Source of the DNA: an uncultured Nitrososphaeraceae archaeon
GTDB lineage: Archaea; Thermoproteota; Nitrososphaeria; Nitrososphaerales; Nitrososphaeraceae
Assembly: GCA_963729045.1 (NCBI GenBank)
Contig: CAVSMN010000014.1
Span: 60,338 to 124,337, forward strand
Length of the DNA: 64,000 bases
Direction of reading: 5' to 3'
The position numbers were made by a program, and so were the translations under genes. A model generated the notes under the pieces. It saw only the letters and a program-made list of their open reading frames with translations. It had not been told where the DNA came from and did not search any database. Numbering within the stretch: the stretch's first letter is position 1; the number at the start of each line of letters is the position of its first letter. Below, one piece after another: positions 3,490 through 60,416 of this stretch.

Positions 3490-5269
3490 CTACTTTTTCA
3501 ACATTGAGTAGTCATGAATCTTGATTGCTTCGGATATTAGCTTATTTTGAATTTCTAGAATGTCCTTTGCCTCTGGATACTTTGATCCAACCACCACCTC
3601 TGCAACAATATTTGTTATGTGTCTGAATAGGAATTCATCTCCTCTTTGAGCCTCTACCTTATAGGTGGAATGAGCCTTATTTACAAAGACAATATTTTCA
3701 TTTGTAAAACTGTATCTCGGATCAGTTTCATCCTCGTAGGGGATCACCTTGTATCCTATTTTTTTTAGCGTGAAAGTTTTTTTGAGAATAGGCTTTCTAA
3801 CCGTTTTTCTAATCATCCCGTTGTTGCCAGTAGCGAGGTTGTCGTTGTAATTATTATTTGAAATCTGTGTTAAAGAAGCACTCTCTCTGTTGGTAGAATC
3901 GTTAAGAGCAAATTCATTTGCTGAATTTGAGATTTCAGAATTGTTTAAAATTTTGTCTCTATTGTCTGTATAATTGTCTGATGAAGAGGTTTTTGTAGCT
4001 TTCTTTGCATTCAAATCATCAAAATTTGAATCGGAATTTCGTTTGCTGTTTTCATCACCGATATCTAAATCATTGTTCCCATCTACCTGTGTTAAGGTAA
4101 AAGATACATTATCGTTTTTATTATTTTCATAACCTTGAATTGAATTTGAATCGCCTGTCAGACTATCTTTTGTGTGACTCGAGCCATCTGTTCCGTTCTC
4201 GCCAGCTGGGGATGAAACCTCGACCGATTCGAATCCTTGAATTTCTTCTACTGGTTCAAGGGTTTCCAAAACAGCTTGACCCATGACTTTATCTATTTCC
4301 TTATAAATTTTTGATTCTTCCCTTGTAATGAGAACGTCTTCATATTCTGTTAGGCTCGGAAGCACTTGATCAATTATGAATGTTTTTACATTTTGATTGA
4401 AAGCGTTATAGGTATCATTCTCAATCAAAGCCGATTTATCTGCAAACCTGGATGTAAGTTCGTCGCATTTTACATATCCTGTAACTCGGCTCAGCTTGTT
4501 GTCAAATCCAAATGTGCTCCTCAAAACCACGTGATTACCTACCATTATTGCTATTCCTTTCTCATCTTGCCCCAAAGGCCTTCTCGCAATGGTTATTTCA
4601 CCGGTGGTTCTTGGATTATCTAAATTTACTTCTAACTTGTAACCTTGAATATCTGGCGAGTGTATTACTTGGGAATTAGACATATCCCATTCTTTAATAT
4701 TGTTAGCAGATTTGATATACACCTCAAAGAGTGGATATTTTAGAATAGAGAGTTTCTTAATCTCTTTGGAAAGTTTGTTTATGTCAATGCTAATTTTAGA
4801 TCCTATCAACAATATTTCAGTACCATTTCTGCTGAGTTTCGGTTCTTTTATCTCACGTAATTTTGCTCTTCCAGTAATAAGCTCTTCTAATGTATTCCCA
4901 TCAATAGCTAATGGTTTTGCTAAAATCGTCCAGCCGAGTTTTGATTTTCATTTGATTAAACGAAGTCAAAAAGGATAATCGTCCAGTACCATATCTTCCC
5001 GTTCTTAACCTTTTCAATTTTGGTGAAAGAGTTTCTTCAGCTTTATGGGGTGAGCCTAATATCAAAAACTTGTCCATTGAATTGGAGTTCATCCCTGCGT
5101 TATCTTCAATTACCACGTTGCCGTTTTCTAATACTGTTACGAGAACATTCGTTGCATCCTCGTCAAAGGCGTTTTCAATTAGTTCTCTCACTATTTCGTA
5201 GGGAGATATCCACGTTTTCGTGGCAAACTCTCTAAAAAATGATGGATGAACCTTTAATTCCATAGTCAA
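3490..5269 (-). CDS. GHKL (Hsp90/MORC-like) ATPase domain protein, split by an apparent +1 frameshift near 4912
   Basis: ORF 4901..5269 has RELIENAFD, IEDNAGM and GRYGTG. The second frame continues LAIDGNTLEEL...NGTEILLIG into ORF 3490..4812, which contains a long acidic/Asn-rich insert. Confidence 0.75.
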
Positions 5270-22627: not shown

Positions 22628-23118
22628 TGGTTTTAAAAGGTACTGTGCATAAATACAATAGGCCGAATATAGACACGGATGTTATAATTCCAGGTCCGTA
22701 TCTAAAAATTCATGATCATGACGAACTTGCAAAACATGCCATGGAAGGATTAGATGCTAATTTTATAAACAAAGTTTCAAAAGGTGATTTTCTCTTGGTG
22801 GGTCATAATTTTGGGTGTGGATCTAGTAGGGAACATGCTCCAATTGCTCTATCAAAAACGGGTATTAAAGCTATTTTGTCTCCATCTTTTGCAAGAATCT
22901 TCTACAGAAATTCTATAGATGGTGGTTATTTACTACCAATTGAAATTGAAGAAAATATTTTGGAAAAAATAGATGATAAGGATGAAATAGAAATTAATTT
23001 AGACACGAATACCGTTTTCAACGTTACTAAAAAAGAATCTTATCCAATCAAACCATTTAGTAAAATAATTTCTGATATCATAGAAGCCGGTGGGCTTTTT
23101 AACTATCAAATCCCTTGA
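22624..23118 (+). CDS. Homoaconitase/3-isopropylmalate dehydratase family, small subunit
   Basis: NIDTDVIIPG, NFGCGSSREHA, SFARIFYRN. Confidence 0.93.
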   Translation: MMVLKGTVHKYNRPNIDTDVIIPGPYLKIHDHDELAKHAMEGLDANFINKVSKGDFLLVGHNFGCGSSREHAPIALSKTGIKAILSPSFARIFYRNSIDGGYLLPIEIEENILEKIDDKDEIEINLDTNTVFNVTKKESYPIKPFSKIISDIIEAGGLFNYQIP

Positions 23119-23179
23119 AAAATATCAAAGCATTCAATTAAAAATGAATACTTTTTAATTTTCACAAAATTCAAAGAAG

Positions 23180-23653
23180 CTAGTCGGGATGTACTTTACT
23201 AATGTAGGAATTTGATGATTGCAATATGCTTGCAGGATTTAGGTACTCAAAATCTAATTTATTTTGAGAATGATAAAACATAATCTGTTTCTTTCTTTCC
23301 TCGTCTATAACATCTGAGTTAGAGTAGTATACTACGAGCTCAAATAAATCCAACTCTTCGAATCGTTTTACATGGGCCATCTGTATATCCCCGTGTTTAA
23401 AACACATTGAATGTGCCAAGGCACATGCAAATTCAAAATTCTTTCCCCTGAAATTTTCGATTACAAGATTCGAGGATATCGTTTCAAGCAATTCGATTCT
23501 ATTTGATTGATGGCTGATATCGTAATTATTTTGCATGGTTTCGCCTACTATTTTGTTCTCAAATAATATTTTTATTTCGCATTTATTAAAAAACGATTCC
23601 ATCAGATATTGCCGGCTCCGTCTCATTAAAGAATGATGCAGTCTCCAACTCAT
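23180..23653 (-). CDS. Hypothetical protein
   Basis: 157-aa ORF with no recognised motif. Confidence 0.5.
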   Translation of the reverse strand: MSWRLHHSLMRRSRQYLMESFFNKCEIKILFENKIVGETMQNNYDISHQSNRIELLETISSNLVIENFRGKNFEFACALAHSMCFKHGDIQMAHVKRFEELDLFELVVYYSNSDVIDEERKKQIMFYHSQNKLDFEYLNPASILQSSNSYISKVHPD

Positions 23654-23807
23654 TTATCTTGTGGAATTATTTACTAGTCTTCTTGAATAGTCTTTTAACA
23701 CTTAATATGAAATAGCTTTAATGCAAGAAAAAAATATTTTAGGTTGAATAATCTCGCAAAAAACCGGTTCTAATCGAATCCGATTGAAATTTCTCATACT
23801 TTATTTG

Positions 23808-24419
23808 TCACGAGTAGGTTCCAGTCAAGTCTCTATATACCTCAAGTGCACTTTCTATATTATTATTTATAATAGAATGAAATACTTTTCCACTAAAAGA
23901 ATAACTAACCAAAAAAGGTTCATTTGTTATAATACGCAATCCATTCCCAGAGAACTGGACACTACCGGTGTTTTTGGGCTCGTCAAGCAGATTAGTTGGA
24001 ATTACCGCAGTATCGTTAATAGGAAATGTATATAGTGTTCCAAATTGGACAGGCAGTTTCAAGCTATTATTTATAGTCAATATATTCAACGATTGTATTT
24101 GTACGGGTTTACTCGAAGTAAAAGTCAATACTCCTGAATAAGTAGTGCTTTCATTTTTGACTGGGAAAATAAAAAATGATTGTTCAAGCCCTGAATTGTG
24201 AAAGACATCAGGATTTGAGGATACTGTTCCACTAAAAGAAACGTCCTGAGATCCTTGACTGGTATTATTCATGCTAACTGTGGCGAAAACAGAAAGTGAA
24301 AAACCTGGTGTTACATAAATAAAAAAAATTACTAATAGTACAATTAGAGTGAGCCTTGGCATCCTAAAAAATGAACTGCATTGGCACTTGTTGCTGTTAT
24401 AGATTGATACTTTGATCAT
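23808..24419 (-). CDS. Secreted hypothetical protein
   Basis: Signal peptide (likely start MPRLTL); YSGVLTFTSSKPVQI; many N-x-S/T sequons. Confidence 0.7.
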   Translation of the reverse strand: MIKVSIYNSNKCQCSSFFRMPRLTLIVLLVIFFIYVTPGFSLSVFATVSMNNTSQGSQDVSFSGTVSSNPDVFHNSGLEQSFFIFPVKNESTTYSGVLTFTSSKPVQIQSLNILTINNSLKLPVQFGTLYTFPINDTAVIPTNLLDEPKNTGSVQFSGNGLRIITNEPFLVSYSFSGKVFHSIINNNIESALEVYRDLTGTYS

Positions 24420-24470
24420 TGGACTAATTAAATATTTGATTCTATGGTTGATAATTAAAACTATTAGAAT

Positions 24471-24659
24471 TTATTGAGTTAAATCAACAATGCTCTTCTG
24501 AATTACTTGCTTGGCTTCATTTGAAATATTATAACAATCAAGTATTTTTTTTGGGCTCCTAATCAGTCGTTTCCTGAATTCGGGTTCACTGGCTGCCTTA
24601 AGTAAAATCTCGCTTATAACTTCAGCTTCTATATTGATAGAACTCAAGTAGTTCCTCAA
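24471..24659 (-). CDS. Os1348/NHLP-clan (nitrile-hydratase-leader-like) small protein
   Basis: EILLKAASEPEFRKRLIRSPKKILDCYNIS fits the I..rA..DpeFR..Ll.dP..aL..y.l pattern; divergent from ycaO. Confidence 0.7.
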   Translation of the reverse strand: MRNYLSSINIEAEVISEILLKAASEPEFRKRLIRSPKKILDCYNISNEAKQVIQKSIVDLTQ

Positions 24660-24806
24660 GAGGAATTATATTATATATACTTTTACTATTCCCCTCTGCT
24701 TTTTATGAACCATTAATCCATCTATGCCCTTTGATTTAGCATTAACATCATAGTCAATCCAATAATTAAAATAATATCTTATAGAAATGATGAATGTAAA
24801 TTCTTA

Positions 24807-26151
24807 TTGAAAACTACATCTCAATTATTATTGAAATCTCAAAAAAAATGGAATGCGATGGGTACATCTAGAATCCAGCCAGTAGAACAAACTTTGGAAA
24901 AAGTAAATTCCTTGATTCAGGAGATTGGGATTACAAGAATTGCAGATATTACAAATATGGATAGGCTTAAAATACCTAATTTTTCAGCCGTATTACCAGG
25001 AACTGAAGACTACATCTGGGTATATAGTGGAAAGGGTCCGACGAAAAACCATGCAAGGGCTAGTGTTATCATGGAAAGCATTGAAAGGTTTTCATCATTA
25101 CCTGCAAATTTCGACGGAAAAATTCAAAGGGGCACTTTTAAAGAATTATCTCAAAGTTATACTGTTCTAAAATATGATGAAGTAGTGGAACCAGTTTCAT
25201 TCCACTTGAATGAAGAAATGATAATGGATTATTGTATCGGTTATGATTTATTAAATAACACAGAAGTATTGGTGCCTGCGCCATTAACAATTTTCAGATA
25301 TACTCCGTCGCCACCATCCATAAATCCTTACTCCTTCTTCCATACAAATGGATTGGCTTCTGGGAATGTAATCGAAGAAGCAATTTGTCATGCCCTATGC
25401 GAAGTTGTAGAAAGGGATGCAGTGAGTTTGGCGGAATTCACTTCTAGTGCATTTCAGTATCATATCTTGAAAACTGTTGAAAATTCGCTTGTAAAGAAGG
25501 GGTTTTCAATTAAAGTCATTTGACTCAAAGAACTTTATGGATGATGATTCTATTTATCCCGAAATTGATCTGAACAGTATCGAACACGTTCCTATTAAGA
25601 GAGTCGTTAATAGGTTTAGGAGTTCTCAAATATCCTTGACAGTAAAGGATATTACATCCGACCTCGGAATTCCAACTTTCATAGCAAGTAGTGCCGAGTG
25701 GGTTAATCATGAATATGGATATTTGGTAGAAGGTCATGGAACTCATCCAGATGCACGAATTGCACTTATGAGGGCAATAACAGAAGTATCCCAATCAAGA
25801 GCAGCTAATATTCAAGGTTCGAGGGATGATCTAAGAAAGATGAAATATGATCCTGAAAATAGTGATGAAAACAGATCATGGCAATTCATAAAGTCAAAAG
25901 AAAAAAAATCATTTTCAGATGTTCACACATTTACCTATGATGATATACTAGATGACATAAAACTTATACTGAGTAGTTTAAAAGCAAAAGGTCTAAAGAA
26001 AGCTATCGTGGTAAACTTGACTAATTCAAAATTAAATATACCAGTTATTAGAGTCATTGTCCCTGGATTGGAAACATTCAAAATAAATAAAGCAGTTATC
26101 GGTCAAAGAGCCAAGGAAAGTGTTAAAAAATGGTTAGGTCCAAACCTGTAA
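24807..26151 (+). CDS. ycaO: YcaO-family protein (TfuA-associated, thioamide-forming type), split by an apparent +1 frameshift near 25513
   Basis: GITRIADITNMDRL, SGKG, MESIERFS, TNGLASGN, ALCEVVERDA; second ORF has RAITEVSQSR, GSRDD, IPVIRVIVPGLE. Joined length about 447 aa. Confidence 0.9.
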
Positions 26152-26791
26152 TATTTTTAGGACCGTCTCTATCAAGGGAGAAAGCAAGAAAAATTCTAGA
26201 CGCAGATTACCGACTACCTGCTAAAAAAGGGGACCTGCTTCAGTTGATACTAAAAGAAGTTGATATTGTTGGATTGGTTGACGGATATTTTCTTCAGGAT
26301 TATCCCCCTACCCCAATTGAGGTATATAATTTAGTCCGAAAAAGGAATGTAAAGGTTTTTGGATCATCGAGTTTGGGTGCACTTCGGGCAGTCGAACTTG
26401 GTAAATACGGGATGATAGGAATAGGAAAAATTTTTAGACTTTTTAGGGATGGAATCTTGGAGTCTGATGATGAAGTAGCTGTGACGTTTACGGATTATAC
26501 AAATTACAAATCAGAAGCATTGATTGATATTAGATACAATTTGTTTTTGGCTCAAGAAATACAAGATCATAGACAATAGAGACCGGAAGATCGATCCTTA
26601 AAGTATCAAAACAGACCTATTTTCCTTATAGGACTTACGAAGATATTTTGGACAAATGTAAATTAAAGTATCCTGAAATCAATTCTCAGGTTGAAAGTTT
26701 TAGAGGTTATATCTTGAATAATAAAAAGAGTTTGAAGGAAAGAGATGCTGTGCGATTATTAAAGCACATCAAGAGTATCAATGAACCATGA
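26130..26791 (+). CDS. tfuA: TfuA-like protein, frameshifted near 26555-26580
   Basis: VIFLGPSL, PAKKGDL, LVDGYF, GSSSLGALRAVEL, GMIGIG, DDEVAV, SEALIDIR. The downstream frame continues KQTYFPYRTY...SLKERDAVRLL to TGA at 26789-26791. Confidence 0.88.
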
Positions 26792-26843
26792 CATCAATAA
26801 AGTTAATTTTATATTCGCTACAATTTAACTAACAGTACTGCTC

Positions 26844-27424
26844 ATGAATAATATGTTGACCAATTTTTTTCATAGTATTGATTCACGTTTTATTTACATA
26901 GTATTTTTCTATTTTTCAGCATTTATGATGCTGTATATAACAATGTTTGGAATGTATTGGAGTTGGGTGGAATATGATAAAACCGGTGCATTAAATATAG
27001 GCGAAACAATCGTAAAGAACGATTTAATCTTTGATGGATCTGGCAAATTGGTTACTTATCTTGCAATTTTCTCAGTTATCACATGGTTTTGTGTTACCAA
27101 AATCGGTTATAGCAGAGTACAAGAATACACCTAAAATAGTTCGATCAGTATTATCTGTATTATGCAATTATCTTGATAGTCGTTGCAGCTTATGAATTTA
27201 CTTACAATTTTACGGTGTGGGGAGCGTTGATTACTGTACATACAATCAATAACTCTTTGAATTTTGATGAAATCAATATAAGTTATCCTAACCCTGAAAC
27301 ACCATGGAATTTAGTTTTCGCAACTAAAATGACTCTTGCGGCTCTTATAATTTCTTGCCATGCTTTTTACATCATTCAAAGATCAGACAAGAAATCATCT
27401 ATTTACGTGAAAGAACAGTCCTGA
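26844..27424 (+). CDS. Multi-pass membrane protein, split into two ORFs by a probable frameshift
   Basis: ORFs 26844..27134 and 27173..27424 are both hydrophobic and contiguous; YPNPETPWNLVFATKM. Confidence 0.6.
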
Positions 27425-27432
27425 AGTACTGC

Positions 27433-27503
27433 GCTCATCTCAATCTCCATCCTCAATCTATCCTCATCTCATCCTCAATCTCCATCCTCCAATCTCCACC
27501 TCC
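27433..27503. repeat. Pyrimidine-rich degenerate short tandem repeat (CTCAATCTCCATC-like)
   Basis: ctcatctcaatctccatcctcaatctatcctcatctcatcctcaatctccatcctccaatctccacctcc. Confidence 0.6.
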
Positions 27504-60104: not shown

Positions 60105-60416
60105 ATGAGGCGCATCTTTACCCTATCAATGCTTAAATGTGATATTTTTGGTTATCTAGTAATGTCTTCATTTGATAGTGTAGACTGGAGTCAAGTGTTA
60201 AAAAAAGAAGCTAGAGGAATAGAGAATGCTGATTTAGGCGAAGTACAAGAGATTCGTCAAGAAAATGTCATAACTAAAGTTGGGTTAATAGATAAAGTAA
60301 CATACAGTATCCCAAAGAGCTTTGTTGATACATTTGACGGCCATACTTTACGATTCAAACTAACAAAAGAAGAAGCAGAAGCCCGATTTAAAACAAAAGA
60401 TGAAGTATGGGTTTAA
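60105..60416 (+). CDS. Small PRC-barrel-like hypothetical protein (start probably ATG near 60162)
   Basis: VLKKEARGIENADLGEVQE...YSIPKSFVDTFDG. Confidence 0.6.
   Translation: MRRIFTLSMLKCDIFGYLVMSSFDSVDWSQVLKKEARGIENADLGEVQEIRQENVITKVGLIDKVTYSIPKSFVDTFDGHTLRFKLTKEEAEARFKTKDEVWV

Follow-up and report, generated by a model that had tools for sequence, protein, structure and literature searches.

We analysed a 64,000-nucleotide (nt) stretch of DNA from an uncultured archaeon (contig CAVSMN010000014.1, forward strand, positions 60,338 to 124,337; hereafter the window, whose own numbering is used below unless another contig or locus is named), which carries a ycaO gene, an overlapping tfuA gene and, divergent from both, a small gene whose product we call the mini-protein. 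The original prediction, made from the letters alone, had read these genes as a candidate system for thioamide modification in an ammonia-oxidising archaeon, with the small gene as a precursor of a peptide made by ribosomes and then modified (RiPP) bearing a nitrile hydratase leader peptide (NHLP). Every open reading frame (ORF) named in it was found in its place, with ycaO and tfuA overlapping by 22 nt, and the motifs it quoted could be read in the translations (SGKG, MESIERFS, TNGLASGN, EVVERD and RAITEVSQSR..GSRDD in YcaO; GPSL, GALRAVEL and DDEVAV in TfuA). The small gene likewise lies where it was reported, and public records annotate its orthologues as proteins of 58 amino acids (aa) starting at the next TTG. 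The two AT-rich boxes of the intergenic region are kept in an alignment of seven Nitrosocosmicus sequences and are presumably the two divergent promoters. Judged by the names of its nearest relatives, the source organism is a Candidatus Nitrosocosmicus of the family Nitrososphaeraceae. Its genome (2.85 Mb, 22 contigs, 87% complete) holds ycaO and tfuA at this locus only, and a search of these 22 contigs for the alpha subunit of methyl-coenzyme M reductase (MCR; PF02249) returned no match, with both methanogen controls positive; this agrees with the view of a thioamidation pair in an archaeon lacking MCR.

Features of the ycaO-tfuA locus, in window coordinates
Feature	Position	Strand	Description
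ycaO	24807..26151	+	ATP-dependent backbone amide-activating enzyme; split in the assembly by an extra base at 25496
ycaO N-half ORF	24807-25523	+	238 aa
ycaO C-half ORF	25537-26151	+	204 aa, in a different frame from the N-half
tfuA	26130..26791	+	split in the assembly by extra bases at 26556 and 26580
tfuA main ORF	26130-26579	+	149 aa
tfuA C-terminal piece	26648-26791	+	47 aa, in a third frame
Mini-protein gene (NHLP-type three-helix)	24471..24659	-	62 aa from the TTG at 24659; intact
Divergent intergenic region	24660..24806		147 nt between the mini-protein ORF and ycaO; two conserved AT-rich boxes
Segment coding YcaO residues ~216-247	25452..25548	+	predicted docking surface for the mini-protein, inside the ~35-residue clade-specific insert
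Predicted membrane-protein gene, no known family	26844..27424	+	downstream of tfuA; split by extra bases at 27121 and 27164

The Pfam YcaO model (PF02624, cut-off 25.7 bits) matched the N-terminal half of the split enzyme with 110.7 bits (E 1.2e-31, profile positions 1-147) and the C-terminal half with 123.6 bits (E 1.4e-35, positions 153-325), and the TfuA model (PF07812) reached 95.1 bits (E 3.2e-27) against a cut-off of 30. An intact YcaO orthologue scored 197.9 bits with the YcaO superfamily model TIGR00702 (cut-off 75.65), which places it within the superfamily. The best NCBIfam models for the pair were those of the McrA-glycine thioamidation YcaO (TIGR03266) and TfuA (NF033432); with TIGR03266, the intact orthologue of the relative G004 (94.6% DNA identity) scored 291.8 bits and the two halves in the window 158.2 and 138.8 bits. 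Among solved structures, YcaO was closest to MJ1094 (6pe3, E 1.6e-36), and TfuA, over its full length, to 6xp8 (E 1.6e-31). The SGKG...E..E.R and E..ERD residues, which we take to bind ATP and Mg, are invariant in 36 YcaO orthologues, and the YcaO C-terminus (...KKWLGPNL) has no Pro-rich tail, as the original prediction had observed. A clade insert of ~35 residues follows the EVVERD helix, making the enzyme ~34 residues longer there than MJ1094 and ~35 longer than one YcaO read from another family of the order, f12. When YcaO was modelled alone with AlphaFold2 (predicted local distance difference test, pLDDT, 85.3), the insert opened with a helix (217-229) placed directly after the EVVERD-bearing helix.

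TfuA is described as a hydrolase that moves sulfide equivalents together with a thiocarboxylated ThiS-type carrier, and this combination of carrier and TfuA tends to be used outside high-sulfide habitats, according to the part of PMC13063428 consulted here. Pfam and NCBIfam scans of the locus found no adjoining ThiS, ThiF or protease genes, in line with the original prediction. Genome-wide, the sulfur-relay candidates comprised three matches to PF02597 (ThiS/MoaD-like) and one strong match to PF00899 (ThiF-type E1), and two small ThiS/MoaD-like ORFs away from the locus end in ...HGG and ...SGG. Judged from these family matches, the genome as a whole appears to provide the ThiS-type Gly-Gly carrier and the E1 that TfuA-dependent thioamidation requires, with the carriers as candidate partners of TfuA. 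On contig C9 (94522-95373, minus strand), a 461-aa frame has a ThiS-like stretch (PF02597 positions 39-76) directly before a full ThiF E1 domain and may be a carrier-E1 fusion. On contig C13 (~1383-1656), a moaD-like gene ending in ...PPISGG and lying beside a MoaE-like ORF is split over two frames, probably by another frameshift error of the assembly.

Searched as a single sequence, the mini-protein matched models of the NHLP clan weakly and below their cut-offs (PF14407, E 4.6e-4; TIGR03793, E 5.2e-4; NF038399, E 2e-3), the TIGR03793 match covering model positions 3-32 of 77 with 19.8 bits, short of the 50.9 bits that mark membership. A profile of nine orthologues matched nitrile hydratase alpha (E 3.5e-9 to 4e-4) and 9cjx, a solved NHLP leader (E 1.4e-3). 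By this profile comparison, the mini-protein is a real relative of nitrile hydratase alpha and of NHLP leaders, and the clan assignment of the original prediction is upheld. The AlphaFold2 model, built with 41 orthologues, was all helical (pLDDT 86.5). Searches with Foldseek and in the ESM Atlas supplied leads only: the top Foldseek row was the LigA-like domain of DesB (prob 0.96, TMq 0.64), and the proteusin precursor 8tb1 stood at rank 7 (35% identity over 34 columns); in the ESM Atlas, the top match was the protein's own archaeal cluster (0.89), and bacterial Os1348 NHLP-clan and Franean1_4349 clusters followed at 0.80-0.83, all below 0.9.

What was not supported in the form proposed was the assignment of the small gene as a RiPP precursor with an NHLP leader. 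The orthologues have no disordered leader, LxxxxL motif, Gly-Gly site or core, and they end a few residues past helix 3 (for example, in ...SIVDLTQ). A profile search through 1.84 billion representatives yielded 195 clusters at E ≤ 0.001, of which 29 reached E ≤ 1e-10; among these 29, no real C-terminal extension was seen and most ended with the match, while the six longer clusters that were read look like miscalled frames or tandem-domain proteins. Because the bundle ends a few residues past helix 3 and the clusters show no C-terminal extension, the mini-protein is, as far as these sequences indicate, a three-helix bundle alone and not a leader-core RiPP precursor. It is present as one copy per genome, and its sequence is nearly fixed across Nitrososphaeraceae (...KAASEPEFR...SIIDLTQ), with a tail that varies between families. 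Furthermore, conservation extends along the entire mini-protein and is about that of the enzymes, with 53-64% identity from Nitrosocosmicus to the family's other genera, compared with 54-59% for YcaO.

The same 151 genomes of the order were searched for the mini-protein, YcaO and TfuA. The mini-protein was found in 42 of them, concentrated in three families (23/23 genomes of f1, 8/9 of f4 and 10/11 of f9) and absent from the other 17. YcaO was found in 47 genomes (46 over the cut-off), namely in the same three families, in 3 of the 10 genomes of f12 and as one weak match; TfuA was found in 46 (f1 23/23, f4 9/9, f9 10/11, f12 3/10). YcaO was present in 41 of the 42 genomes with the mini-protein, the exception being a genome that is 67% complete, and within the three families two genomes had YcaO and lacked the mini-protein, with YcaO at contig edges in both. 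The arrangement of the genes was read in a second sample of 80 mini-protein loci from species-representative genomes. A ycaO gene lay upstream on the opposite strand, head-to-head, in 43 of these loci, at a median of 148 nt between match ends, and 42 of the 43 also had tfuA; in 14 further loci, the flank was too short to judge the linkage. The other two families show the head-to-head layout again: in one, the genes were directly adjacent in all seven loci fetched (7/7), and in the other, one gene stands between them in most loci. Where the mini-protein gene was unlinked, ycaO was found elsewhere in each of the five genomes checked (5/5). Co-conservation of the small gene with the pair, which the original prediction had left as a check, was observed in presence and, in part of the loci, in synteny.

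To model the complex, the intact YcaO (36-row alignment) was paired with the mini-protein (41 rows) and run beside three controls. The interface score ipSAE was 0.84 for the YcaO/mini-protein pair versus 0.00 for the best of the three controls; of 157 solved complexes, 116 reach this ipSAE mark, as do 2 of 215 mismatched pairs, a calibration that is only rough here because our own alignments were used. The runs share at least 97% of contacts, with a partner pLDDT of at least 86. On the YcaO side, the modelled interface comprises residues 216-247 together with 438 and 442, that is, the insert and the C-terminal helix; on the side of the mini-protein, it comprises residues 8-34 and 48-61, including the invariant AAxxPEFR face. 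The model supports binding, which is thereby predicted, and we infer that the docked mini-protein would sit near the mouth of the active site. In f12, the one YcaO that was read lacks the insert, and the mini-protein was found in 0 of 10 genomes. Such a mode of recognition has precedent, because structured NHLP domains are reported to contact YcaO cyclodehydratases in the portion of a preprint consulted here (bioRxiv 10.64898/2026.10.04.756588).

We propose, with a probability of roughly 45%, that the locus encodes a three-part module for backbone thioamidation, the replacement of oxygen by sulfur in a protein backbone, and that its most likely substrate is the docked mini-protein, a small folded protein. 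YcaO would activate a peptide-bond carbonyl using ATP, TfuA and a thiocarboxylated ThiS-type carrier would supply the sulfide, and the mini-protein, as a stand-alone three-helix bundle of NHLP type, would dock on the YcaO insert unique to this archaeal clade and receive the thioamide, with the 35-47 loop and the short C-terminal tail as possible sites. We lean toward the mini-protein as a substrate because, to our knowledge, NHLP-clan proteins are substrates wherever their role is known. Several observations weigh against this proposal. The intact YcaO orthologue stays below the equivalog cut-off of TIGR03266 (365 bits), and the intact TfuA orthologue, at 206.7 bits, below that of NF033432 (235.2 bits). 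A Foldseek search with the 62-residue mini-protein model gave no match at E ≤ 0.001, the mini-protein has neither a core nor a Gly-Gly site, no protease or exporter lies nearby, and no mini-protein residue is listed at the catalytic motifs of YcaO in the complex model. In Nitrososphaera and two further genera, the mini-protein gene and ycaO lie apart, and 23 of the 80 loci, mostly from Nitrososphaera, have no ycaO in at least 2.5 kb of upstream sequence. Because the three families are kin, the co-occurrence represents a small number of independent gains or losses. The formation of a thioamide on any substrate, and its site, is itself something we infer, and a permanent subunit would yield the same picture as a substrate.

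That permanent subunit would be a trans leader or a lid of YcaO that activates the enzyme or aims it at another cellular protein, as for MCR or uL16, a possibility that we regard as rather unlikely and that nonetheless draws on several of the same findings. Known protein substrates of YcaO enzymes are recognised in the folded state, according to the part of PMC13063428 consulted here. In the complex model, nearly the whole mini-protein is buried on the YcaO insert, with none of it listed at the catalytic motifs, and the conservation of its full length at about the enzyme's rate, its single copy per genome and its missing core would all suit a subunit. The best structural look-alike, a lead only, is the LigA-like domain of DesB, and this type of fold also forms subunit contacts in nitrile hydratase. 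On the other hand, we know of no NHLP-clan protein that acts as a non-substrate subunit, and no further gene is conserved together with the pair in all three families; the NHLP domains published as contacting YcaO belong to substrates. It is very improbable that the small gene is functionally separate from the pair or encodes its small divergent regulator. Although the head-to-head layout is typical of regulators and in three genera the gene lies apart from ycaO, its homology lies with NHLP and nitrile hydratase alpha and with no DNA-binding family, its presence and absence track YcaO-TfuA across the order, and the predicted complex passes its controls.

A different kind of alternative concerns the frame breaks in the two enzyme genes, which the original prediction had placed near 25513 and at 26555-26580 and had regarded as possible sequencing errors. 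We located them as three private single-base insertions, a G in each of two A-runs, at 25496 and at 26556, and one base at 26580; the insertion at 25496 falls within the segment coding the docking insert of YcaO. In an alignment, the three extra bases are missing from six of six close relatives (90-95% DNA identity). They were also sought in the Logan contigs of three DNA metagenomes, each from a different study, which represent strains ~95-99.6% alike to the window. The base at 25496-25499 is missing in both covering DNA runs, one contig otherwise having 1 difference in 261 nt. None of the three runs has the base at 26553-26556. At 26578-26580, one tabulated run lacks the base, and two short contigs of another run show one gap each there. 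Once the three bases are removed, the ycaO and tfuA frames hold terminal stops only, and the codon changes relative to G022 are mostly synonymous (45 synonymous and 12 non-synonymous in ycaO; 23 and 6, respectively, in tfuA). Relatives carry intact copies. In the genus, 24 of 24 genomes have a YcaO that stays open in a single frame for 427-502 aa, one of them with an internal TAA, and the open frame of TfuA measures 215-315 aa in the other 45 matching genomes versus 150 aa in the window. Because all relatives keep a single open frame without the extra bases, programmed frameshifting and a different genetic code are rejected as causes of the breaks.

Beyond these genes, the assembly looks prone to insertion errors. 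A 49-kb alignment against one relative contains 12 single-base insertions and 4 single-base deletions inside that relative's long ORFs, and 7 of the 12 insertions fall in 23620-27164, where they break two neighbour genes besides ycaO and tfuA. A single-base deletion at 23239, just upstream of the seven insertions, completes the cluster (23239-27164), and the two disrupted neighbours are a 157-aa hypothetical gene (23180-23653) and the membrane-protein gene. Over 23000-27500 as a whole, eight extra bases stand at about 23621, 23677, 24754, 25496, 26556, 26580, 27121 and 27164. Further ORF-breaking single-base insertions occur at 4908, 20301, 50346, 50366 and 51269, and over the whole alignments the window has 49 single-base insertions versus 28 deletions against G004 and 28 versus 10 against G022. 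We consider it unlikely that ycaO, tfuA and the two neighbour genes are truly decaying in this strain, even though the bunching of 7 of the 12 insertions in conserved ORFs could mean a local loss of constraint. Indels in prokaryotes are usually biased toward deletion, unlike this cluster, which consists of insertions only (7/7) apart from the one deletion beside it. The extra bases are missing from the near-identical strains in three DNA runs, taken from as many studies, removal of these bases leaves no premature stop, and the changes lie mostly at third codon positions. Decay also fits poorly with the 95% identity of the region to G022, compared with 92.7% over the longer alignment, with the ORF-breaking insertions elsewhere in the window and the moaD-like gene split on another contig, and with a genome that is 87% complete despite having only 22 contigs. 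Judged from these comparisons, the breaks are most probably assembly errors, as had been suspected at the outset, and a module that is intact in the natural population is the best explanation. In a Nitrososphaera sp. genome (G041, C1:852784-853831), ycaO is likewise divided into two open frames, of 242 and 237 aa. One metatranscriptome run (Logan) has contigs over parts of ycaO and tfuA, although contigs from an RNA library do not prove transcription; in the same run, 24510-24811, with most of the mini-protein gene, is uncovered, a coverage gap that has no evidential value.

The YcaO-TfuA pair of ammonia-oxidising archaea is already published and not new. A published tree (PMC5589413, 2017) places ammonia-oxidiser YcaO homologues inside the clade of methanogen YcaOs, and genome mining has counted eight TfuA-related clusters in Thaumarchaeota (PMC8120280), both as given in the consulted parts of these papers. 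The McrA-glycine YcaO-TfuA system of methanogens and anaerobic methanotrophic archaea resembles the present pair in its best family models and solved relatives, in the overlap of ycaO with tfuA and in its place in that clade; it differs in that the pair described here scores under both equivalog cut-offs, occurs in a genome in which no MCR alpha was found, has ~35 extra YcaO residues and has a predicted dedicated partner in the mini-protein. On sequence grounds, the pair is a near relative of the methanogen system and not a member of it. A true NHLP precursor, as portrayed in the consulted part of PMC10858898, has ~60 structured residues (three helices and two strands), a Pro-rich linker, a disordered LxxxxL leader, a Gly-Gly site and a core. 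The mini-protein shares a homologous N-terminal helical bundle with proteusin-type precursors of this kind (8tb1, 9cjx); missing from it are both beta-strands, the Pro-rich linker, the disordered LxxxxL leader, the Gly-Gly site and the core. Unlike these precursors, it is single-copy and highly conserved in sequence instead of variable. The YcaO of E. coli, which serves the thioamidation of ribosomal protein uL16, likewise acts on or binds a folded protein and not a linear peptide, according to the consulted part of PMC13063428, but it works without TfuA and is of a distant type, its model NF040716 (cut-off 700 bits) reaching 38 bits here. An adjacent YcaO-TfuA pair also occurs in thioamitide and other bacterial TfuA-related RiPP clusters, whereas no tailoring enzymes, protease, exporter or variable core were found at this locus.

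The YcaO-TfuA of ammonia-oxidising archaea has been on record since 2017 with no target named in the consulted part of that report (PMC5589413). In a literature search that excluded subscription journals and the supplements of two genome-mining papers, we found no paper tying the YcaO of these archaea to a small NHLP-like protein. With one conserved and dockable candidate partner, the question of the target becomes a simple matter of co-expression and mass spectrometry, and cultured relatives exist. If our proposal is true, an NHLP domain would work free-standing and not as the front end of a RiPP precursor. As of March 2026, MCR and uL16 are the only proteins known to be thioamidated in the backbone, according to the consulted part of PMC13063428. 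It is conceivable, although we think it doubtful, that the helical protein of 58-62 residues is itself the end product and forms a third natural class of thioamidated protein after these two; a methanogen-type YcaO-TfuA would then recognise the mini-protein via a purpose-built insert, and the thioamide would lend the mini-protein its own function in ammonia oxidisers, both soil-dwelling and thermophilic. The energy metabolism of ammonia oxidisers depends on copper, and a role of the thioamide in the mini-protein in, for example, handling soft metals such as copper would follow from thioamide chemistry as pure speculation.

Several neighbouring genes were weighed as alternative partners of the module and rejected as general ones. 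The membrane protein downstream of tfuA matches no Pfam or NCBIfam family, and tblastn matched it in 22 of the 80 mini-protein loci, all of Nitrosocosmicus type; this protein, a secreted-looking protein of 203 aa and a protein of 134/157 aa were set aside as belonging to no family and not being conserved beyond the genus. The 203-aa ORF (23808-24419, minus strand) adjoins the mini-protein gene and has a hydrophobic N-terminus and no known family; it is 77-84% identical in close Nitrosocosmicus, 27-61% identical or absent in distant ones, and nothing matched it beyond the genus. In one other family, a transporter of the bile-acid:sodium-symporter type (PF01758; L026:6496-7464) stands between the mini-protein gene and ycaO, and it was rejected as a general partner as it occurs in that family only. 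In genus g37 of another family, the mini-protein gene is unlinked from ycaO and lies head-to-head with a TldD/PmbA metalloprotease pair (L138:3012-6002). Proteases of the TldD/PmbA type mature microcin B17; the pair was found in one genus only and was likewise dismissed as a general partner. Oligopeptide-permease-like ORFs downstream of tfuA, read from translations in two loci of other families, are not general either.

The YcaO-TfuA pair of f12 (L145:4934-7691), present in 3 of 10 genomes, is of a second type. Its YcaO, of 414 aa, has no insert and scores higher with Pfam, and no mini-protein accompanies it; the flanking ORFs, read from translations only, are a radical-SAM-like one and one of 380 aa. 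The other neighbours at the locus comprise LeuC/LeuD-like genes, again read from translations, hypothetical proteins and a YfcE phosphodiesterase.

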